UHGV virus genome: UHGV-1767510
Length of the DNA stretch: 18,381 nt
From: a virus
Strand: one strand, 5' to 3'
Shown here: positions 5,586 to 18,111 of the stretch, in pieces
How positions within the stretch are numbered: the stretch's first letter is position 1
Layout: each line of letters begins with the position of its first letter
Program-made: the position numbers and the translations under genes
The notes under the pieces: generated by a model
Told to the model about the DNA's origin: nothing
What the model saw: only the letters and a program-made list of their open reading frames with translations
The model's database searches: none

Positions 5586-6518
5586 TTAAAGAACCGATTT
5601 AACAAGATGGTTTTTACGGTACAGACCTATGCGATCATTGTGAATCTCAGTAGTCTCCACTAAAAGAGAAACAATCTGTCCGACCTTGTGTTTTTTTTGT
5701 ATTAAATCTAGCATTTCAATCGGATAGGAAGCCTTTAAATGTTCACCACCAACATCAAGCTCCAGCTTCCCATATTTGGATAGAACGACCAGTTCGCCTG
5801 TAACCGTTTCAGTAATGGGAGGGGATGAAATGGTTGATGTAAGTCTACTCACCAAGTACTTAATTTTATTGGAGTCAATAGTTGCCACCTTGGTGCCATT
5901 ACTAAATGGACCGGTCCAACTTGCATCAAATGTTAAGTTGTGTTTATCGCATTCCTCTACGATTCTCTTAAGGCTTACAGTGGAATTGTATCCAATTTCA
6001 GCGACGTGATTCATGAAGTTGTTGTCGTCATCGCTTAACAACAAATCGAATATGCCTTTTACAGCCTTGCTGGGTACTGTTTCTACTAATTCTGCTATTC
6101 CTGTAGAGAAGGTGACGCCCAATTTTGTAGACCCAGGGGATAAATCAGCCAGCCTGAGGTTTAAGGAGCTTTTCACGTCGTAGGGAACTTTTTTTGAGTC
6201 CTTGCCTGAGGCAATTTTGTGTGTTGCTCTTTGTATTAGCGCTGCAAGATTTGTTGAAATAGCCCCAAGCAGCTCTAAAGGAATAGAGCCAAAGTCAACC
6301 TCAGAGCCTTTCAGCCGCAGCTCAAAAAAATCGATAAGTGGGTGCCGACTATCTTGCTTTAATTTTTCGGCCTTCAAATCGCTCAGATGAGAATCCATGG
6401 AGCGATAAAGAAGCATGTCAGCAAAGGACCTGGTTTTGTTTTGCTTCATTGCATCGACTTCTTTTTGAATGAAATCAATGCGTTTATCGCAATTTTTAAA
6501 CATTGATTTATCATTCAT
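5586..6518 (-). CDS. Unknown 310-aa protein, second gene of the rex-slot cassette (candidate effector or partner)
   Basis: Long ORF translationally coupled to the upstream gene (ATGA overlap at 6515-6518). No motif I can assign (no Walker A, HEPN, HNH or PD-(D/E)xK signatures seen by eye). Confidence 0.7.
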   Translation of the reverse strand: MNDKSMFKNCDKRIDFIQKEVDAMKQNKTRSFADMLLYRSMDSHLSDLKAEKLKQDSRHPLIDFFELRLKGSEVDFGSIPLELLGAISTNLAALIQRATHKIASGKDSKKVPYDVKSSLNLRLADLSPGSTKLGVTFSTGIAELVETVPSKAVKGIFDLLLSDDDNNFMNHVAEIGYNSTVSLKRIVEECDKHNLTFDASWTGPFSNGTKVATIDSNKIKYLVSRLTSTISSPPITETVTGELVVLSKYGKLELDVGGEHLKASYPIEMLDLIQKKHKVGQIVSLLVETTEIHNDRIGLYRKNHLVKSVL

Positions 6519-6994
6519 AAAAAAATCCTCACTAACCCTTTCGGGTTTTCACTGCGATCAAAACCAAACCAACCGCGCCAGTAGCTACGCCAGTACTCAT
6601 AATCATAGTTAGGGTCATCTAAATTCTTCATGAGTAGTAGGACATCAATTTTGTAGTTTTGTTTGATGTAGTTTCGGTCAAGCAAATTATCGACGCGGCC
6701 CCGAAGCATGACAGGTATTGAGTTTATATTGCTATAGTCACATACCAACAAAATATCAATATCATCAGGCTCTGGTTTAGACGTGGTGTATGAACCATCA
6801 ACCCATATTTCTGTAAAACAGCCATATTGAGCAGATAATTCTCGAATAGATTCGAGTAGCTGTATAAAATTACAGTATAGCATGCCTCGCCTGGATGATG
6901 AAGGAAAGCAATCGACACAATACGATTTTAATCCAGCTTCATCCATGTCATGGAACCCTGGCTCAAACAGGGGTGGGTAATTAATTTTATCCAT
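6515..6994 (-). CDS. Putative minimal nucleotidyltransferase-fold protein (159 aa), first gene of the rex-slot cassette
   Basis: Motif WVDGSYTTSKPEPDDIDILLV fits the Pol-beta superfamily NTase signature hG[GS]-x9-Dh[DE]h. RBS AAGG 6 nt before the ATG. Lies immediately downstream of cI, where lambda has rexA. Confidence 0.65.
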   Translation of the reverse strand: MDKINYPPLFEPGFHDMDEAGLKSYCVDCFPSSSRRGMLYCNFIQLLESIRELSAQYGCFTEIWVDGSYTTSKPEPDDIDILLVCDYSNINSIPVMLRGRVDNLLDRNYIKQNYKIDVLLLMKNLDDPNYDYEYWRSYWRGWFGFDRSENPKGLVRIFL

Positions 6995-7143: not shown

Positions 7144-7860
<717 letters not shown>

Positions 7861-8624: not shown

Positions 8625-8771
8625 ATGACAAAACAACTCAGTCCTTACCAGGACAAAATTCACAAACACATACTACGTGATCGCTTCCTGTCCAGCTTCA
8701 AGCAGCCTGGTCGATTCCGGGCTGAGTTGGAAAAAGTGAAGCTGATGCAGAAGGAGAAAGGTCATGAGTAA
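8625..8771 (+). CDS. Small hypothetical protein (48 aa) between cII and O
   Basis: ATG at 8625 preceded by AGGAGT; [48 protein letters not shown]; overlaps the O start by 8 nt. Too short for the ORF track. Confidence 0.35.
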
Positions 8772-9624
8772 TCTTGCAACCGTAACACATTTAAGGCCTT
8801 CACAACGGCCTGTGGAGCGTCGTGTGGCAGAAGTTGAAGATGGTTATACCCGTCTTGCAAATGCCCTGTATGAAGAGCTTATCGGCGCAGATTTAACAAA
8901 AAATCAGAGTAAGGTTGCCCACGCCATATGCCGTAAAACATACGGATACGGTAAAAAGATGGATCGCATCTCTGATAGTCAGTTAGCTCAAATTACCAGG
9001 CTGCCAAGACAGAAGGTAAACAAGGCCAAGAATGAGCTTATCGCGATGAAGGTAATCCTTCGCGAAGGCCAGCAAATCGGGCCTAACAAGAACATCGAGG
9101 AATGGCAAATCGAAGGGTGTCACTACTCTGGTGATAATGTCACTGCATTGGTGACAAAAAGTGTCACCAAAACGGTGACAGCGCTGTCACCAAAACAGGG
9201 ACACACAAAAGAAACTATTACAAAAGAAAAAAGAAATAATAAAAACACTATGTCCGAAAGTGTTCGGACGGAGTGTGAAAAATCATCTGACCGTCACGAA
9301 GAAACCGACAAGGCATTCGAGGAAATATTCTGGTGTGCAGGCATGCGGAAAGCCGGGAAGAAAAACGCAGCTTCGGCATTCAGAACACAGTTCAGGGAAT
9401 GGCGTAAAACTACCAGGGGTACGGCAAGCGAGTTTGCCACGATGCTGGCAGAAGACATCGCATGCAGGAATGGTAAGCAGTTCGGATTCGACAGGTTGTT
9501 ACCATCGAGCTACCTGAACGGTCAACGCTGGAACGACGAAAAGCCAGAAACCATTCAACCACAATCCAAACCATCATCCGCAATCACCGTATCGAAAACT
9601 GGCTACGTGTTTTTCGACAGGTGA
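8764..9624 (+). CDS. O: Replication initiator protein O (lambda O family)
   Basis: 286 aa. N-terminal region resembles lambda O (...[56 protein letters not shown]...). Iteron-type origin lies inside the gene, as in lambda. Confidence 0.85.
9131..9250. repeat. Replication origin (ori-lambda-like): iterons followed by an AT-rich segment
   Basis: Three to four repeated inverted-repeat units of the form tgtcacc-aaaac-ggtgaca (about 9148-9204) inside the O gene, then an A-rich tract (9205-9250). Analogous to the four 19-bp O-binding iterons of lambda. Confidence 0.6.
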
Positions 9625-9627
9625 ACC

Positions 9628-9735
9628 ATGAAATCAAAAATCAAATCGCTACTGGTCGCTGGTTATAACCACGGCTGGTTAAGTATTTCGTTTGTCGATT
9701 TCTGGTTTAAAAATCTCAATCTGAGGGAATCATGA
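9628..9735 (+). CDS. Small hypothetical ORF (35 aa) coupled to the primase-helicase gene
   Basis: ATG at 9628 with AGGTGA upstream; ends in an ATGA overlap with the start of the 968-aa gene. MKSKIKSLLVAGYNHGWLSISFVDFWFKNLNLRES. Could equally be non-coding leader. Confidence 0.2.
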   Translation: MKSKIKSLLVAGYNHGWLSISFVDFWFKNLNLRES

Positions 9736-12638
9736 CGCCAAGTGAACTTAGCGACCTGCTTTGGGCGCAGGTTGACAGGGTGGCTCCGCACCTGTTGCCA
9801 AACGGCAAGAAAGAGGGGCATGAGTGGGTTGCCGGTAACATCAACGGTGACAAGGGAAACAGCCTTAAGGTCAACCTTAGCGGCAAGAAAAAATGGGCTG
9901 ATTTCGCCGAGGGAGACGGCGGTGACATGCTTGATTTGTGGATGGCATGTCGTGGAATTAACCTGCATCAGGCTATGCAGGAAGCGAAAGCATTTCTCGG
10001 TATCAAGGATGACGATCACCATTTCGATGCCAGACGTGAGAAAAAATTCTCCAGACCTGATCGCAAGAAAATCGCCCGCTACGTTACCAGAACAGAATCC
10101 CATCTTGAGTACCTGCAATCGCGTGGCATATCGCCAGAAATCGTAAAGCGCTACGAGGTTGTCAGCGGCAAGGTGTGGAATGGAGAGCGGGAACTGGATG
10201 CTCTGGTGATTCCGTACAAACGCGATGGTGAGTTGTTGCAGGTCAAGCGAATCAGCACTGAGCGCCCGGACGGGAAGAAAGTCATTATGGCAGAAGGTGA
10301 TTGCGAACCTTGCCTGTTCGGATGGCAGGCTCTGGACGCTGGCGTGAGGGCGGTTGTGCTTTGCGAAGGCGAAATTGATTGTATGAGCTATGCGCAATAC
10401 GGCATCTCGGCGTTATCCGTGCCGTTTGGTGGCGGGAAAGGCGCTAAGCAACAGTGGATTGAGTTTGAGTATCACAACCTCGACAGGTTTGAGGAAATAT
10501 TCATCTCGATGGACGTTGATGATGTTGGTCGTGAAGCCGCAAGGGAAATCGCAAGCCGACTCGGTGAACATCGTTGCCGTCTTGTTACTCTGCCGTACAA
10601 AGACATCAACGAATGCCTGATGAACGGTGTTACCGAGGATGAAATCTGGCAGTACATCGGCACGGCATCCTACTTCGATCCTGAAGAACTCTACAGCGCG
10701 CGAGAGTTTTACCAGGACACTATCAACGCTTTCTACGGCAAGCAGCAGTATCTGTTTAATCCACCGTGGGAATCTCTGGCAGATAAATTCCAGTTCCGTG
10801 AGGCAGAGTTGACGCTGGTCAATGGTGTGAACGGTCACGGAAAAGCCTGTCCACTTGATGAACCAATTCTGCTCGCTAATGGTGAATGGACTACTCACGG
10901 GGATGTAAAAATTGGCGATCAGGTGGCATCAGTAGACGGCAATCCGTCAACTGTCACCGGGATATTCCCGCAGGGTGTTAGAGATGTTTACCGAGTCACA
11001 TTTGAAGATGGTCGTTATGTTGATTGCGCAGGCGATCACCTATGGGAGGTCACTAGTCGTGGATTCACGAAAGGCGAGAAGCGCCGCGTGATAGACACCT
11101 TCGAGCTGAAACGGTTGAGTGAAACGAAGAGGCACAAAAATGGCGTCAGGATACCCGAAATAACTGGTGACTTTGGCGACCACTCAGAGCCATTAGCATG
11201 GGTTATCGGCTCCCTTCTCGGGGATGGTAGTCTTAGCAATGGGAGCGTGAAGTTTTCAAACGTCGAGCCATACATGATCGAGCGTATGAAGGCTGAACTG
11301 CCTGATTACAACTTTTCTGGAGATGGTAAGGACTGGCTGATATCAACGGCGCGTGGTCAGGTAAATCCACTCATGGAGACCCTGCGAGTTTATGGACTAA
11401 TGGGGTGCACAGCAAAAAACAAATTCATCCCTCGTGTGTTTTTTTCCGCAAACAAATCAACGCGTATAGGAATGCTGTGTGGTCTGCTTGAAACGGATGG
11501 TTATGTCGAGAAGGATGGAACGCTTGTTTTTTCCTCAGCAAGTGAAGAACTGCGTAATGGGGTTGTTCAACTGGTTAACTCACTCGGCGGTTCATGCCGG
11601 ACGCGAGTTAAAACTGGCGTGACATACACATACAAGGGCGATAAGCGGCATGGGATGGATTCATATGAGGCAAGGATACGACTGACAAGGGAAATCAGGG
11701 AGGCCATCCGTTCACCACGACTCAATGGCAGATTAACTGCGCATCGATTCGAGGGGTGTGGGGTATTCGTCAGGAATGTTGAAAAAATCGGCAATGCAGA
11801 ATGCTTGTGTATCATGGTCGATCACCCTCGCCACCTGTATGTAACCAGAGGATATGTGGCAACGCATAACACCGAGGTTGTCGGGCATATGGCGCTTGAG
11901 GCAATGCGTCAGGGTGTGAAGACGTGCATCGCGTCACTTGAGCTGAAGCCTGGTATTCTCCTTAAGCGCCTTACCCGTCAGGCGACGTGCTGCAAGATGC
12001 CGCCAGTGCTGGAAATTGACTCTGCATTTAAATTTTATGACGAAAGACTTTGGGTGTTTGGCCTGACCGGAACGGCGAAAGCCGACAGGCTGATCGAAAT
12101 ATTCGACTACGCTCGCCGCCGATACGGGATCCAGTTATTCATCATCGACAGCCTGATGAAATGTGGCATAGGCGACGATGACTATAACGGGCAGAAGGCG
12201 TTTGTTGACTCGATTTGCGACTTCAAAAACAAAACAAACTCCCACGTCATTCTCGTTACTCACTCGCGAAAAGGAGACAGCGAAGAAAAACCAACCGGGA
12301 AAATGGACGTAAAAGGCTCTGGAGCGATAACAGACCTGACAGACAACCTTTTCATCATCTGGCGTAACAAGGCTCGCGAGAGAGCGTTACAGAGAGTTCA
12401 GAGTGGTGAAAAGATGTCAGAGAAGGACGAACAGCTACTGGCATCTCCGGCATCTGTTTTGATGCTTGAAAAACAACGTAACGGCGAAGGTTGGGAAGGT
12501 GGTGTCCCGTTGTTCCTTGACGAGCAATCGCACCAGTTCCTGCAACTTGAATCAGGATCGCCATATAGCTACATCGCCAATATGCCGAAATCGGAATATG
12601 ACGAGGCGTGGCGACAGGAAAACGTGACGGAGTATTAA
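9732..12638 (+). CDS. Bifunctional primase-helicase (Toprim primase domain + DnaB/gp4-like helicase domain) interrupted by an intein
   Basis: 968 aa. N-terminal Toprim-like motif (VVLCEGEIDCMSY). Walker A GVNGHGK[A]-T split by the insert; Walker B-like LFIIDSL and VILVTHSRKG downstream. Occupies the slot of lambda P (helicase loader), following O. Confidence 0.85.
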   Translation: MTPSELSDLLWAQVDRVAPHLLPNGKKEGHEWVAGNINGDKGNSLKVNLSGKKKWADFAEGDGGDMLDLWMACRGINLHQAMQEAKAFLGIKDDDHHFDARREKKFSRPDRKKIARYVTRTESHLEYLQSRGISPEIVKRYEVVSGKVWNGERELDALVIPYKRDGELLQVKRISTERPDGKKVIMAEGDCEPCLFGWQALDAGVRAVVLCEGEIDCMSYAQYGISALSVPFGGGKGAKQQWIEFEYHNLDRFEEIFISMDVDDVGREAAREIASRLGEHRCRLVTLPYKDINECLMNGVTEDEIWQYIGTASYFDPEELYSAREFYQDTINAFYGKQQYLFNPPWESLADKFQFREAELTLVNGVNGHGKACPLDEPILLANGEWTTHGDVKIGDQVASVDGNPSTVTGIFPQGVRDVYRVTFEDGRYVDCAGDHLWEVTSRGFTKGEKRRVIDTFELKRLSETKRHKNGVRIPEITGDFGDHSEPLAWVIGSLLGDGSLSNGSVKFSNVEPYMIERMKAELPDYNFSGDGKDWLISTARGQVNPLMETLRVYGLMGCTAKNKFIPRVFFSANKSTRIGMLCGLLETDGYVEKDGTLVFSSASEELRNGVVQLVNSLGGSCRTRVKTGVTYTYKGDKRHGMDSYEARIRLTREIREAIRSPRLNGRLTAHRFEGCGVFVRNVEKIGNAECLCIMVDHPRHLYVTRGYVATHNTEVVGHMALEAMRQGVKTCIASLELKPGILLKRLTRQATCCKMPPVLEIDSAFKFYDERLWVFGLTGTAKADRLIEIFDYARRRYGIQLFIIDSLMKCGIGDDDYNGQKAFVDSICDFKNKTNSHVILVTHSRKGDSEEKPTGKMDVKGSGAITDLTDNLFIIWRNKARERALQRVQSGEKMSEKDEQLLASPASVLMLEKQRNGEGWEGGVPLFLDEQSHQFLQLESGSPYSYIANMPKSEYDEAWRQENVTEY
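10848..11870 (+). mobile_element. Intein with LAGLIDADG homing-endonuclease domain, inserted in the helicase P-loop
   Basis: In-frame 341-aa insert starting CPLDEPILLANGEW... and ending ...YVATHN followed by Thr (+1 nucleophile). Two LAGLIDADG-like motifs (VIGSLLGDGSL; LCGLLETDGYV). Removing it restores a P-loop. The N-terminal boundary could be one residue earlier (Ala, 10845), which would give a perfect GVNGHGKT Walker A. Confidence 0.7.
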
Positions 12639-12720
12639 ATGACAATCTACATCACTGAGCTAATAGCAGGGTTATCGTTACTAATGGTTCTTACTGTATA
12701 TATTATTAAGTATATTCTTT

Positions 12721-13332
12721 ATGCGAATAAAAAAACCAATTGATCACGATGAGCTTCTGTCAACATTATCATATGACTCAGAAACAGGAATATTTAAATG
12801 GCTAAAAACAAATTCAGTAGTAAGAGTAAAAGGTAGTATTGCTGGAGGTGTTAGTGGTGGTTATATATGCATTAGCATAAATAATGTTTTGTATTATGCG
12901 CATAGGCTTGCTTGGTTCTATGTATACAAAAAATGGCCTCCTAAGTTTATTGATCATGTAAATGGGAACAGACTTGACAATAGGATTTCAAATCTAAGAC
13001 TGGCAACAGAGGAGCAGAATGCAAGAAACATTGTAGGTAATAGGTTAAACACATCCGGTGCGATTGGAGTGTCTTGGGATAAGACAACTGGCAGGTGGAA
13101 GTCTTATGTTGGTTATAAAAATAAGACAATATCGTTAGGGTATTTCGATAGCAAAGAAGATGCAGCATTCATAGCAGCACTAGCAAGAAAGAAACTATAT
13201 GGAACTTATGCGAGTAAAGCACTTAATTGCGAGCATGAGCTTTTATCTCAATTTAATAATGATGAGGATAAACTTGCGGAATATCTTAAGGAAAAATCTA
13301 AAAGGACTCGAAAGCGTGTTAAAAAAAGATAA
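12721..13332 (+). CDS. Free-standing HNH homing endonuclease with AP2-like DNA-binding domain
   Basis: HNH motif ...YYAHRLAWFYVYKKWPPKFIDHVNGNRLDNRISNLRLATEEQNARN, plus AP2-like GVSWDKTTGRWKSYVGYKNKTISLGYFDSKEDAA. The gene and its flanks are visibly AT-rich compared with neighbours (not computed). Confidence 0.8.
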   Translation: MRIKKPIDHDELLSTLSYDSETGIFKWLKTNSVVRVKGSIAGGVSGGYICISINNVLYYAHRLAWFYVYKKWPPKFIDHVNGNRLDNRISNLRLATEEQNARNIVGNRLNTSGAIGVSWDKTTGRWKSYVGYKNKTISLGYFDSKEDAAFIAALARKKLYGTYASKALNCEHELLSQFNNDEDKLAEYLKEKSKRTRKRVKKR

Positions 13333-13364
13333 AGGCCTGCTGGTAATCGCAGGCCTTTTTATTT
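13333..13364 (+). terminator. Intrinsic terminator after the HNH gene
   Basis: Hairpin aggcctgc-tggtaatc-gcaggcct followed by TTTTTATTT. Confidence 0.6.
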
Positions 13365-13379
13365 GGGGGAGGGTAAATT

Positions 13380-13586
13380 GTGGCTGAGTTAATTTTCTCT
13401 GCATTGAGGATTCTCGGTGCTATGTGGATGGTGGCGACGTTCATTGTTGTTGCCAGCAGTTTTGTCCGGTTGGTAGGCGAAGGTAAAGACCTGGTGGGTG
13501 TGCTTTTCGGTAGCATTTTCCTGTGGGTGATTATCGGTGTTATGCCTGTCGCTGTAGCAAAAATGGCGTGGCGTTTTGTGAGTTGA
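13380..13586 (+). CDS. Small hydrophobic membrane protein (68 aa, GTG start)
   Basis: Two predicted TM helices (ILGAMWMVATFIVVASSFV; VLFGSIFLWVIIGVMPVAVA). GGGGAGG RBS 7-14 nt upstream of the GTG. Confidence 0.4.
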   Translation: MAELIFSALRILGAMWMVATFIVVASSFVRLVGEGKDLVGVLFGSIFLWVIIGVMPVAVAKMAWRFVS

Positions 13587-13603
13587 ACTGAGGGTAAGTA
13601 TCG

Positions 13604-13882
13604 ATGGACGAATCAAGAAAGCAGTTTGAAGAATGGTGGTCAAAAGACAAAAGCCAGTTTACAGAAGACGATGAATTAAAAGAGTTTGCCTGGGTGATAT
13701 GGCAGGCATCACGAGCAGCTATTGAACTGGATATCGACTGGCCCGAATCGAATGACGACTTTTGGAAAGATGGTGAAGAAGGTGCTTATGCGATGGGTTA
13801 TGAGGATGGGCGTGACAAAACGGTAATTGCAGTAATGAAAGCCATCAGGGCCGCAGGAATCAAAGAAAAGAATTTCGATTAA
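13604..13882 (+). CDS. Hypothetical acidic protein (92 aa)
   Basis: ORF with plausible start context; acidic, Trp-rich; no family recognised. Confidence 0.45.
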   Translation: MDESRKQFEEWWSKDKSQFTEDDELKEFAWVIWQASRAAIELDIDWPESNDDFWKDGEEGAYAMGYEDGRDKTVIAVMKAIRAAGIKEKNFD

Positions 13883-14014
13883 GCAAATATCACTTCAATA
13901 AATCGCTTTTAAGGTATCACAATCGCTCTGTAGTGAGGTAAAAGCGTGCAAGGTACGCCAATAAGCAGCGAGAATGAAAAATGCGTCAGAATGCGTTTGA
14001 GGAGGTTTTAAGAA

Positions 14015-14242
14015 ATGAGTACGATAGCTGAGCTTGTCCGCGCCGACTTTCAGGAGAACATTGGCCGTGCAAAGCGGTACTGGTCTGCTTCCAGACTTCC
14101 TACTGACGAGAGACAGAAAAGCGCCCCTAAGCCACGGAGCTATCCGCGTGACCGTGTTCTTCGTCGGTTGGTTAAAATCGATAATGATTTTCAGTGTGAC
14201 AGAATTATCCAGCAATTAGATTTGATGACTGATGATGAATGA
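14015..14242 (+). CDS. Hypothetical protein (75 aa)
   Basis: ATG preceded by GAGGAGG; ends overlapping the ninB start. Confidence 0.45.
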   Translation: MSTIAELVRADFQENIGRAKRYWSASRLPTDERQKSAPKPRSYPRDRVLRRLVKIDNDFQCDRIIQQLDLMTDDE

Positions 14243-14657
14243 TTTCATTCTGCACGAAACCAATAAATCACAATTCTGGTTAGTTCTGAAACAAATCCTT
14301 TCTACCGGCAAGCGCTGGCGAATCAAAATATCTGAGTACCGTGAGAAGCGTACATTGTCACAAAACAATCTGATGTGGGTGTGGAATGCAGAAATAGCCG
14401 CGCAATTATCCGCTGTTTCTGGTGAAAGTTTTACACCGGAAGAGGTTCATGAGTGGCTGAAAGATATATATTGTCCGGCAAAAAGGGTGACGATTTTTAA
14501 TATTACACGATGCGTTAAATCAACACGGCAGCTTGATATTGGAGATATGCACAAGTATCTGACCGATATTGACCAGTGGGCGCATCAGAAGGGATTACGA
14601 CTAACTATTCCTGATAATTGCGAGTACCGGGATCTAAAGGAGAGGCAAGTAGAGTGA
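14232..14657 (+). CDS. ninB: NinB-family recombination protein (Orf-like)
   Basis: 141 aa. Motif TLSQNNLMWVWNAEIA parallels lambda NinB SLDQNRKLWACLGDVS. First gene of a nin-like block. Confidence 0.65.
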   Translation: MMNDFILHETNKSQFWLVLKQILSTGKRWRIKISEYREKRTLSQNNLMWVWNAEIAAQLSAVSGESFTPEEVHEWLKDIYCPAKRVTIFNITRCVKSTRQLDIGDMHKYLTDIDQWAHQKGLRLTIPDNCEYRDLKERQVE

Positions 14658-16734: not shown

Positions 16735-17383
16735 TGGCAGCAAATACCGAAATATTTGGGTAGTTGGCGATCTGCACGGATGCTACACGAACCTGATGAA
16801 AAAACTGGAGACGATAGGATTCGACACCAAAAAAGACCTGCTTATCTCGGTTGGCGATTTGGTCGATCGCGGTACAGAGAACGTCGAATGCCTGGAATTA
16901 ATCACATTCCCCTGGTTCAGAGCTGTACGTGGAAACCATGAGCAAATGATGATTGATGGCTTATCAGAGCGCGGAAACGTCAATCACTGGATGCTTAATG
17001 GCGGTGGCTGGTTCTTTAATCTCGATTACGACAAAGAAATTCTGGCTAAAGCTCTTGCCCATAAAGCAGATGAACTTCCGTTAATCATCGAACTGGTGAG
17101 CAAAGATAAAAAATATGTCATCTGCCACGCCGATTATCCTTGTGACGAATACGAGTTTGGAAAGCCAGTTGATCATCAGCAGGTAATCTGGAACCGAGAA
17201 CGAATCAGCAACTCACAAGACGGGATCGTGAAAGAAATTAAAGGCGCGGACACGTTCATCTTTGGTCATACGCCAGCAGTGAAACCGCTCAAATTTGCCA
17301 ACCAGATGTATATCGATACCGGCGCAGTGTTCTGCGGAAAGCTCACATTGATTCAGGTACAGGGAGAAGGCGCGTGGGCATAA
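16712..17383 (+). CDS. ninI: Serine/threonine protein phosphatase (lambda PPase / NinI family)
   Basis: Metallophosphatase motifs GDLHG, GDLVDRG and GNHE. Start [25 protein letters not shown]... at 16712, inside the longer track ORF. Confidence 0.85.
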
Positions 17384-17892
17384 GAGAACTAAACCTCACC
17401 AAAGAACAGCATGAGTGGCTGAATGGCTGGCTTGAACTGTGGGGCGCATGGGTTTATTCAGGTCGTCTGGAAAAGCGCATGAGCAGCGTAATAGCGAAGT
17501 TCATGGAGAGCGTAGAGCCGGGAAGAGTTATGACAAGGCCAATGTGTAATGATGATGATGGAATGTTGATTTCTCAGGTCGTCGATTCCGTCATGTACAT
17601 TGACAAGAAAGCCTTTGGCATCCTCCTCAGCTACTACGCTCATGGTTCATCTAAGCGAGCAATTGCATCCTACTATCACGCGACTGCAAAGCCACGCAAG
17701 ATGTGTGGACGTGGTGGCGAGGGATGGAGAAAACCTTCAATGGCAACCTGTAGAAACGAAATTGACGACATCCTGAAAGCGTCGTTATTTGTTTTGTACC
17801 AGCCAATGCAAAATGCTTTCAAAATGCGTAAACGTGTTGAGAAAGTTAAGCATGTTGCTGTTAAAAGCCTTGACATGCAATTATCTATTTAG
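17374..17892 (+). CDS. Q: Late-gene antiterminator Q-like protein (non-lambda Q type)
   Basis: 172 aa. GTG start with AGGGAGAAGG RBS. Positioned after ninI and directly upstream of a pR'-like promoter, terminator and holin; contains Cys/His residues. The call rests on position, not on recognised sequence identity. Confidence 0.5.
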
Positions 17893-17955: not shown

Positions 17956-18030
17956 GGGTCAGTCGTATAAAGGTCATTACGGAAGGCTGTTAACCTTCTT
18001 ATCGTGGTTCGAGTCCACGCTGTCCCGCCA
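17956..18030 (+). tRNA. tRNA-like gene, anticodon GUU (Asn) by manual folding; possibly degenerate
   Basis: Manual cloverleaf: acceptor gggtcag/ctgtccc with one T-T mismatch, D-arm with GG, perfect anticodon stem gaagg/ccttc with loop CTGTTAA, T-arm cgtgg-TTCGAGT-ccacg, discriminator G and encoded CCA. Confidence 0.45.
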
Positions 18031-18035
18031 AACAT

Positions 18036-18111
18036 GCTGGTTTAGCTCCAATGGTAGAGCAGTCGCCTTGTAAGCGAATGGGTAGCGGTTCAAGTCCGTT
18101 AACCAGCACCA
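18036..18111 (+). tRNA. tRNA gene, anticodon UGU (Thr) by manual folding
   Basis: Manual cloverleaf: perfect 7-bp acceptor gctggtt/aaccagc, D-arm gctc-CAATGGTA-gagc, anticodon loop CTTGTAA (stem with one G-A mismatch), T-arm agcgg-TTCAAGT-ccgtt, discriminator A and encoded CCA. Confidence 0.7.

Follow-up and report, generated by a model that had tools for sequence, protein, structure and literature searches.

Homing endonucleases in which an HNH nuclease is joined to an AP2 DNA-binding domain are a recognised class (PMC1524935, PMC10448857), represented in phages, cyanobacteria and ciliates (the class of Magnani et al. 2004) by genes such as RB49 ORF040c and RB43 ORF027c, with the 'IPA-HNH' of ICP1 as a relative. 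Two further systems are of use for comparison, namely I-HmuI of the Bacillus phage SPO1 (PDB 1U3E), an HNH nicking enzyme, and mobE of phage T4, a promoterless free-standing HNH homing gene between nrdA and nrdB which nicks its target and co-converts the flanks (PMC2790892). Here we report on a mobile cassette of 665 base pairs (bp) in UHGV virus genome UHGV-1767510, within a stretch of 18,381 nucleotides (nt; the whole stretch is called the window below) which is the early region of a lambda-like prophage. The cassette carries one HNH-AP2 gene and interrupts the mini-gene ninA at the terminator tR2; its base composition is foreign and its junctions are constant, phages can dispense with it, and its nearly unchanged sequence occurs among unrelated neighbours. 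It is probably a promoterless free-standing AP2-HNH homing endonuclease gene which targets ninA/tR2 and has been fixed at the 5′ foot of the tR2 hairpin.

Like the described AP2-HNH proteins, the cassette protein has an N-terminal HNH nuclease and a C-terminal AP2 domain, and its gene is free-standing, sporadic in phages and located at a module boundary. On the other hand, this lineage resides in temperate lambdoid phages and prophages and not in virulent phages, its nuclease is a canonical Pfam HNH_3, whereas the ICP1 IPA-HNH is too divergent for the HNH_3 profile (PMC10448857), and the present comparison defines where it is inserted, namely at tR2 within ninA. With T4 mobE it shares a position tightly wedged between host genes, an inheritance linked to the flanking sequence and the presence, within about 1-2 kb, of another selfish element that has its own endonuclease, be it an intron or an intein (PMC2790892). 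The C-terminal domain of the mobE product is different, and mobE targets nrdB beside its insertion point, whereas the cassette interrupts its presumed target, a terminator plus a mini open reading frame (ORF); nicking and high-frequency inheritance were shown experimentally for mobE. In its nuclease module the cassette lineage resembles I-HmuI, and in its genomic lifestyle it resembles T4 mobE.

The earlier note on this DNA had pointed by eye to an AT-rich island, and the composition was indeed not uniform on computation. In 300-bp windows the guanine-cytosine (GC) content was 0.34-0.38 across 12600-13350, about 0.48 to the left and 0.42-0.46 to the right. The AT-rich insert itself (12671-13335, 665 bp, delimited by empty-site comparison) had a GC content of 0.341, the lowest of any 665-bp stretch in the 18.4-kb window; such stretches elsewhere had a mean of 0.457 and a standard deviation of 0.032, which places the insert at z = -3.6. 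At third codon positions the GC content (GC3) was 0.255 in the HNH-AP2 gene versus 0.42-0.55 in six neighbouring genes. The size of 665 bp follows from the spacing between the start codon of ninA and the hairpin, which was 29 nt where the site was empty but 694 nt where it was filled; the shorter value was found in all 124 empty sites examined, and the longer one in 24 of 26 filled loci, the exceptions being a 1-nt frameshift and an IS1203 insertion. The left half of ninA ended with ...CTAATAGCAGG at 12670, and the right half restarted with CCTGCTGG at 13336. The junction was ambiguous by 3 nt (AGG), and in the alternative register (12668-13332) the insert ends on the HNH stop codon. Exact cognate empty sites were found to exist, in which ...TAGCAGG is joined to CCTGCTGG... 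and the left flank is identical to that of the filled allele. Scars of a deletion of the right-hand repeat type (TAATAAAGGCC) were looked for, and none was found. The span of 12640-13364 given in the earlier note corresponded very closely to the stretch formed by the start of ninA, the cassette and tR2.

To the left of the insert, the native 5′ part of ninA (12639-12670, + strand) forms the left homology arm and ends with ...GAGCTAATAGCAGG; its ATG at 12639 lies directly 3′ of the TAA stop codon of the primase/helicase gene. This segment was identical or nearly so to the first 32 nt of the annotated ninA of Sf101, 24B, P22, HK620 and lambda. In those phages ninA is an ORF of 26 codons and reads ATGACCATCTACATCACTGAGCT(A/T)(A/G)TA(A/G)CAGG followed, across the junction, by CCTGCTGGTAATCGCAGGCCTTTTTATTTGGGGGAG... 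To the right, the ninA 3′ part (13331-13364, + strand) holds the resident intrinsic terminator of the lambda tR2 type and forms the right homology arm, with a 10-bp stem at 13331-13358 and a T-run to 13364. In the records of P22 and HK620 this hairpin carries the label terminator, and in that of Lahn3 'tR2, early terminator'. Since the flanks of the cassette are the two halves of one ninA/tR2 segment, which in lambda (L009) is 68 nt long and stands at 40567-40634 directly after ren, the cassette lies inside the mini-gene ninA and the hairpin is the resident tR2. Two statements of the earlier note were hence upheld in part: the gene does sit between the replication and nin modules, but inside the 26-codon ninA ORF and not in an intergenic gap, and a strong terminator does follow it, but this is lambda tR2 within ninA and not cargo of the island. 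Beyond the T-run, a conserved GGGGGAGG Shine-Dalgarno sequence (GGGGGAG; 13365-13372, + strand) ends the ninA/tR2 linker and serves whichever gene follows, here the GTG at 13380. In every allele the common linker came to its end at ...TTTGGGGGAG(A)G, beyond which different genes followed.

Compared with lambda, ninA of the window is split, it has received a new C-terminus from the cassette, and the terminator is preceded by the HNH stop codon. The resulting hybrid ORF, ninA′ (12639-12743, + strand; 34 amino acids (aa), MTIYITELIAGLSLLMVLTVYIIKYILYANKKTN), overlaps the HNH start by 23 nt; its first 10-11 codons are native ninA and the remainder is supplied by the cassette, the native NinA being MTIYITELITGLLVIAGLFIWGRGKS. 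The reading was open and hydrophobic in that frame only, and the record of phage SH2026Stx1 lists ninA′ as a hypothetical gene of 105 bp. We also considered whether the cassette 5′ end was a diverged duplicate of the displaced ninA 3′ part, and at the DNA level this was rejected (ungapped identity 15/49, shuffle p = 0.25).

The native tR2 stem is formed by 13333-13340 and 13349-13356 (8 bp), and the A-rich end of the cassette lengthens it to 10 bp. In the filled allele this A-rich gene end extends the pairing with the T-run to give arms of 16 nt with 88% complementarity, and a terminator-like site is gained on the minus strand at tR2 (window 13330-13358). The HNH stop codon (13330-13332) abuts the stem, while in empty alleles the hairpin is inside the translated ninA ORF. 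The NinA start codon is 30 bp upstream of tR2 and the NinA stop codon 16 bp downstream, and a stop codon placed a few bp upstream of tR2 was reported to bring a stopped ribosome which represses termination (PMC4824070). By this analogy, a ribosome halted at the HNH stop codon should repress termination at tR2. The insertion of the cassette may thus alter the efficiency of tR2.

One position of the left arm was polymorphic among empty sites. At ninA nt 28 (window 12666) the majority read ...TAACAGG (Thr10) versus ...TAGCAGG (Ala10) in the others, the latter being represented by 24 IMG/VR loci (L163-L186); no filled site with A at this position exists, all 26 filled sites having G. A perfect linkage of G with the cassette (26/26 filled versus 0/124 empty) was at first apparent and was rejected as circular, since the empty-site pattern had fixed that base and the rescan recovered the 24 empty sites of the G type. 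As judged from their sequences, these sites may be the ancestral target, the product of precise loss or a sensitivity/resistance polymorphism. Furthermore, one filled allele, GAGCTGATAGCAGG, resembled a recombinant of donor and recipient ninA variants; it is a single case and gives an indirect hint of co-conversion.

The earlier note had asked whether relatives without the insert exist, and they turned out to be the rule. When a 669-bp query (window 12662-13330) was used, 19 deposited phage records matched the insert with 97.8-98.7% identity, and all of them were Escherichia or Shiga toxin (Stx) phages (HK022, PA28, 1717, SH2026Stx1, WGPS4/6 and others). The uninterrupted 68-bp site was present in 365 phage records, including lambda, P22, HK620, 933W-like Stx phages and 80 Salmonella phage records. 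In 5426 complete E. coli genomes, 144 copies of the insert were found in 126 genomes and the ninA/tR2 sequence at 2863 places in 1965 genomes; IMG/VR held 28 filled and at least 144 empty sites. The gene is therefore not ubiquitous, and the cassette is absent from about 95% of otherwise identical sites, empty ones outnumbering filled ones by about 20:1. A near-isogenic empty allele was identified in E. coli JX21CE33, with 1 mismatch in 700 bp on the left and 5 in 300 bp on the right.

To describe the genomic backgrounds, the 300 bp on each side of the site were clustered into flank classes. Of the 7 upstream classes 6 contained filled alleles, as did 6 of the 9 classes downstream, and filled alleles showed 12 combinations of the two; the upstream classes included the 3′ ends of Toprim primase/helicase, DnaB-type helicase and ren genes, and each upstream class with filled alleles also held empty ones. 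Among 25 filled loci the mean pairwise divergence of the insert was 0.95% (maximum 2.1%, 8 haplotypes), and the flanks were unalignable in 80% of the pairs upstream and in 83% downstream. Cassette copies were 97.6-100% identical everywhere, with identical junctions in all. Where both flanks of a pair were homologous, the divergence was 0.09% in the insert versus 0.4% upstream and 5% downstream. An insert more uniform than the adjacent homologous DNA fits a recent spread across backgrounds.

Several copies showed decay. Frameshifts were present in the copies of MS 196-1 and L024. Three different insertion sequence (IS) elements, ISEc8, IS1203 and IS100, had entered independently the left end of the copies of phage 1717 (L005), E. 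coli Z1834 (L006) and E. coli 90-9280 (L007), at positions corresponding to 12670, 12686 and 12771 of the window, and the HNH gene was truncated in the third. The AT-rich left end of the cassette appears to be a target of such elements.

The HNH-AP2 gene (12721-13332, + strand, 203 aa) is read in a frame other than that of ninA′, between a start and a stop codon of its own. Its Pfam HNH_3 (His-Me finger) motif spans residues 58-102 (12892-13026, + strand; 57.8 bits against a cut-off of 24.8, E 8e-16), and the protein matched PHROG 99 'HNH endonuclease' with E 4e-72. The AP2 domain (residues 114-161; 13060-13203, + strand) scored 32.6 bits as a single sequence, just below the Pfam cut-off of 33.3. 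When 41 homologues were combined into a profile and compared with PDB, the AP2 assignment was supported by matches to WRI1 (2e-11), TEM1 (5.5e-7), ERF1 (7e-3) and also ERF096, together with a match of the nuclease part to I-HmuI (1u3e, E 1.9e-6). In the AlphaFold2 model (mean predicted local distance difference test score 89.3), residues of about 114-163 superposed on TEM1 with a root-mean-square deviation (rmsd) of 1.1 Å over 48 columns and on ERF1 with 1.4 Å over 51 columns; the modelled AP2 domain consists of strands 117-120, 125-132 and 135-142 and a helix 145-163, with C-terminal helices and a basic tail beyond. Profile and fold thus bore out the HNH and AP2 domains that had been recognised from the letters. 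NCBIfam gave no match to this protein, and among defence-system models only a weak 'homing endonuclease' match was obtained (E 1e-3).

The first 105 residues or so were aligned by Foldseek to 1u3e_M over 106 columns, with an rmsd of 3.6 Å and a probability of 1.00 but an E-value of only 0.02. I-HmuI and the cassette protein share the N-terminal beta-sheet region, the HNH motif with its D-H...N...N residues and the tethering of a nuclease module to a separate DNA-binding module, at a sequence identity of about 20%. The motif residues D78-H79 (nt 12952-12957), N87, N91 and N100 were all present, and D78-H79...N100 aligned to D74-H75...N96 of I-HmuI, which we take to be the general base and metal ligands in the 1U3E structure. 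The C-terminal DNA-binding part of I-HmuI is helical with a helix-turn-helix (1U3E), where the cassette protein has AP2. I-HmuI also differs in being encoded in a group I intron, none of which was detected around the cassette ORF.

In the 41 homologues D78, H79, N87 and N91 were invariant, and N81 and N100 were conserved in at least 90%. The ORF was intact in 22 of 23 full-length IMG/VR copies. Copies from different phages differed by 8 synonymous and 6 non-synonymous changes, none of them at catalytic residues, and this ratio, from a small sample, suggests some purifying selection. To judge from these features, the protein is apparently a functional I-HmuI-like nuclease tethered to an AP2 DNA-binding domain. 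Outside the near-identical lineage its relatives were mostly about 54% identical or less, within a very large set of phage HNH/AP2 proteins many of which are annotated as homing endonucleases. The gene has itself already been annotated publicly, generally as 'HNH endonuclease', as 'homing endonuclease' in PA28, and the annotation of phage 1717 cites the HK022 gene as 'putative endonuclease'.

The sole relative with 62% identity, P0004, was considered as an independent lineage at the site and rejected as a chimera, in which about 175 nt of this gene are followed by a GC-richer HNH-AP2 gene abutting rusA. A chimeric HNH gene of this kind was observed at 5919-6516 of L011 (a Logan contig of SRR10380363): the left junction and the first 175 nt or so were identical to the cassette, after the AHRLAWF motif the sequence switched to a GC-richer HNH-AP2 gene overlapping rusA, and most nin genes were missing. 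This arrangement looks like a recombination between two endonuclease paralogues that deleted the intervening DNA.

Other types of mobile element were sought at the same place. No intron or other RNA family was found in 12300-13700 by an Rfam E-value search, which gave two chance-level matches far below the gathering scores; a group I or group II intron with a homing endonuclease was rejected, there being no conserved intron RNA structure around the ORF. An IS or transposon was rejected as well, since the only ORF is HNH-AP2, with no transposase, no terminal inverted repeats of the insert and no real target duplication; the cassette junctions share only the 3-nt AGG and an imperfect ATA(G/A)(C/-)AGG. 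The nuclease ORF hence lies outside any intron or intein with its own start and stop, that is, it is free-standing, and together with HNH and AP2 domains, an intact catalytic motif, constant junctions and unrelated flanks this agrees with the free-standing homing endonuclease gene postulated in the earlier note. A sigma-70 scan of 12000-14300 returned no site on the + strand, with an overall count at chance level, so that a promoter of the HNH gene's own was rejected. No Shine-Dalgarno sequence was found upstream of the HNH gene.

A second selfish element is located 800 bp upstream of the cassette. It is a LAGLIDADG intein of 342 aa (residues 372-713; 10845-11870, + strand; Pfam LAGLIDADG_3 and Hint) in the Walker A loop of the primase/helicase, between GHGK and T. 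Compared with the primase/helicase of Sf101 (626 aa), that of the window (968 aa) is longer by one clean block of 342 aa, and intein-less alleles of 626 aa were common. The intein starts with Ala-Cys (ACPLDEP...) and ends with His-Asn before Thr (...THN, then T); the start at Ala1 and not at Cys or Ser presumably suggests a non-canonical splicing class. In 25 loci of the Toprim context, window included, no association of intein and cassette was evident: both were present in the window and L023, the intein only in 24B and L118, the cassette only in W224N, L024, L025 and L030, and neither in 17 loci. The two elements are independent, as had been suspected, because all four combinations of presence and absence occur.

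A path by which a homing gene could have spread into ninA/tR2 can be outlined as follows. Because the cassette has no promoter-like site or Shine-Dalgarno sequence of its own, and in analogy with the promoterless T4 mobE, it would be transcribed from pR with the replication genes, and the HNH gene would be translated weakly or in coupling to ninA′. During lytic growth or co-induction, the protein would bind the uninterrupted ninA/tR2 of any lambdoid genome that lacks the cassette and shares the cell. A preference of AP2 domains for GC-rich DNA has been stated (PMC10448857), and the AP2 domain would probably contact the tR2 stem, since this is the sole GC-rich element there. The HNH domain would then nick or cut nearby, nicking being the activity of many HNH homing enzymes (PMC2790892), and the break would be repaired by recombination from the cassette-bearing genome, so that the cassette is copied in. 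A carrier would be immune, its recognition sequence being split 665 bp apart. The cost to the host phage would be low, as tR2 and the Shine-Dalgarno sequence of the next gene remain intact and a hydrophobic NinA-like peptide is still encoded.

Homing into ninA/tR2 has to be weighed against the possibility that the cassette is passive, that is, that it arose by one insertion (by homing or by illegitimate recombination) and then spread by ordinary homologous recombination through the conserved ninA 5′ part (about 30 bp), the tR2/Shine-Dalgarno segment (about 45 bp) or the flanking modules, with the nuclease inactive, off-target or irrelevant. A number of observations tell against homing, and most of them would suit this alternative. 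One junction pair in all copies indicates one original insertion; empty sites likewise occur in 25 upstream/downstream combinations, i.e., they show the same free mixing of modules; and 385 phage records whose flanks are otherwise dissimilar had a ninA/tR2 of 90-100% identity, which makes this segment a natural crossover point, so that module shuffling without any nuclease at the conserved linker could give the same distribution. The occupancy of about 5%, with deposited filled phage records of Escherichia type only and empty ones also from Salmonella, is unlike a very efficient drive, and the frameshifted and IS-bearing copies described above also speak for a passive element. Carriers, moreover, have kept the tR2 half of the putative target. 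Filled and empty prophages coexist in one genome, for example in E. coli O157:H7 TT12A (NZ_CP038496.1), which has a filled site at 2002417-2003085 and an empty one at 3671681-3671748, although all that follows from such coexistence is an absence of conversion while the prophages are repressed. Finally, no paper on this ninA/tR2 HNH element, and no description of the insertion site, of an allele census or of context independence, was found in the searchable literature, outside of which are subscription-only papers such as the HK022 genome paper. Set against a passive spread are the intact ORF in 22 of 23 full-length copies with unchanged catalytic residues in the copies compared, the indication of purifying selection from the few substitutions, and the insert divergence of 0.09% between flanks that diverge by 0.4% and 5%. 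We regard the passive alternative as rather unlikely, and homing into ninA/tR2 as probable.

The nuclease may also have been domesticated, such that it cuts the ninA/tR2 of competing or resident lambdoid genomes, for exclusion or recombination, to the benefit of the carrier. A target in about a third of E. coli genomes (1965/5426), often in several prophages, and a co-transcription with the replication genes, as the position in the pR operon implies, would suit such an action early in infection, and from other phages there are reports of nucleases encoded where genetic exchange has its boundaries (PMC10448857). Yet no known defence system was matched beyond the weak 'homing endonuclease' model, no promoter for expression from a repressed prophage was found, and mechanistically this role would be the same as homing and inseparable from it by sequence; we hold it to be improbable. 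The suggestion of the earlier note that some HNH proteins in this position assist terminase was not supported. A helper of the HK97 gp74 type, which aids cos cleavage and DNA packaging, has as its sole support that such HNH proteins exist in related phages (PMC3592412, PMC5304195), and the helper genes are located next to cos and the terminase genes (PMC3592412) and not in the nin region. The present gene lies between the replication and nin genes, no terminase gene was found in the window, and the absence of the cassette from about 95% of close relatives, including near-isogenic ones, implies that it is not needed for packaging. To our knowledge, terminase-associated HNH proteins are small and lack the HNH_3 plus AP2 architecture. 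A packaging role is hardly conceivable for this gene.

The remaining genes of the window are in keeping with its assignment to a lambda-like prophage. The upstream early region contains an Ea22-like gene, followed by an S24/helix-turn-helix repressor (7144-7857, minus strand), replication protein O (8764-9624) and the Toprim primase/helicase (9732-12638, + strand; Pfam and PHROG matches), after which comes the HNH-AP2 gene. Two small conserved phage genes, of PHROG 1165 and PHROG 343, lie between the island and NinB; the first encodes a PHROG 1165 protein of 68 aa (13380-13586, E 3.5e-37) from the GTG mentioned above. NinB starts at 14232 and is followed by Dam, NinG and the antiterminator Q (17374-17892), and a tRNA-Asn (GTT) and a tRNA-Thr (TGT) are encoded directly 3′ of the Q gene (17956-18111, + strand). 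Apart from the cassette, a second AT-rich island was observed at 5586-6994 (minus strand, GC content 0.36-0.41), adjoining the cI-like repressor. Both of its genes matched the PADLOC candidate defence system PDC-M63, as the B component (5586-6518, minus strand, E 7.5e-45) and the A component with DUF6932 (6515-6994, minus strand, E 1.8e-41), and the pair probably represents a defence moron carried by the prophage at the place of rexAB.

For annotation, the hairpin 3′ of the gene should be given as tR2/ninA and not as the endonuclease's own terminator, and in practice the cassette offers a clean presence/absence marker for the typing of Stx prophages. A stop codon which abuts the hairpin, in place of a terminator that is translated through, could retune the read-through of tR2 into nin-Q. 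The junction concerned, tR2, is among the most conserved non-coding joints of lambda-like phages and has been studied for decades; should the enzyme be active, it would be a homing endonuclease directed against this joint in lambda-like phages, among them Stx-converting prophages of E. coli O157:H7. An active enzyme would also make this a simple and genetically tractable homing system in temperate phages, with lambda crosses and a target of 68 bp. The target may even be the replication/nin linker itself, the ninA/tR2 segment, which several hundred lambdoid phages with differing flanks share at 90-100% identity, but we consider this speculative and unlikely. Interest in the cassette would rise if its enzyme cuts this linker and so promotes module exchange; otherwise, it is an ordinary selfish gene of a well-known class. 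A cut there could also take along the LAGLIDADG intein, located 800 bp upstream, in the way that T4 mobE carries I-TevIII. If the enzyme nicks or cuts the replication/nin linker, it would constitute a built-in recombination hotspot driving the shuffling of modules at this place, and, if active, it would offer a concrete way in which some of the mosaicism between the replication and nin modules of lambda-like phages could arise.

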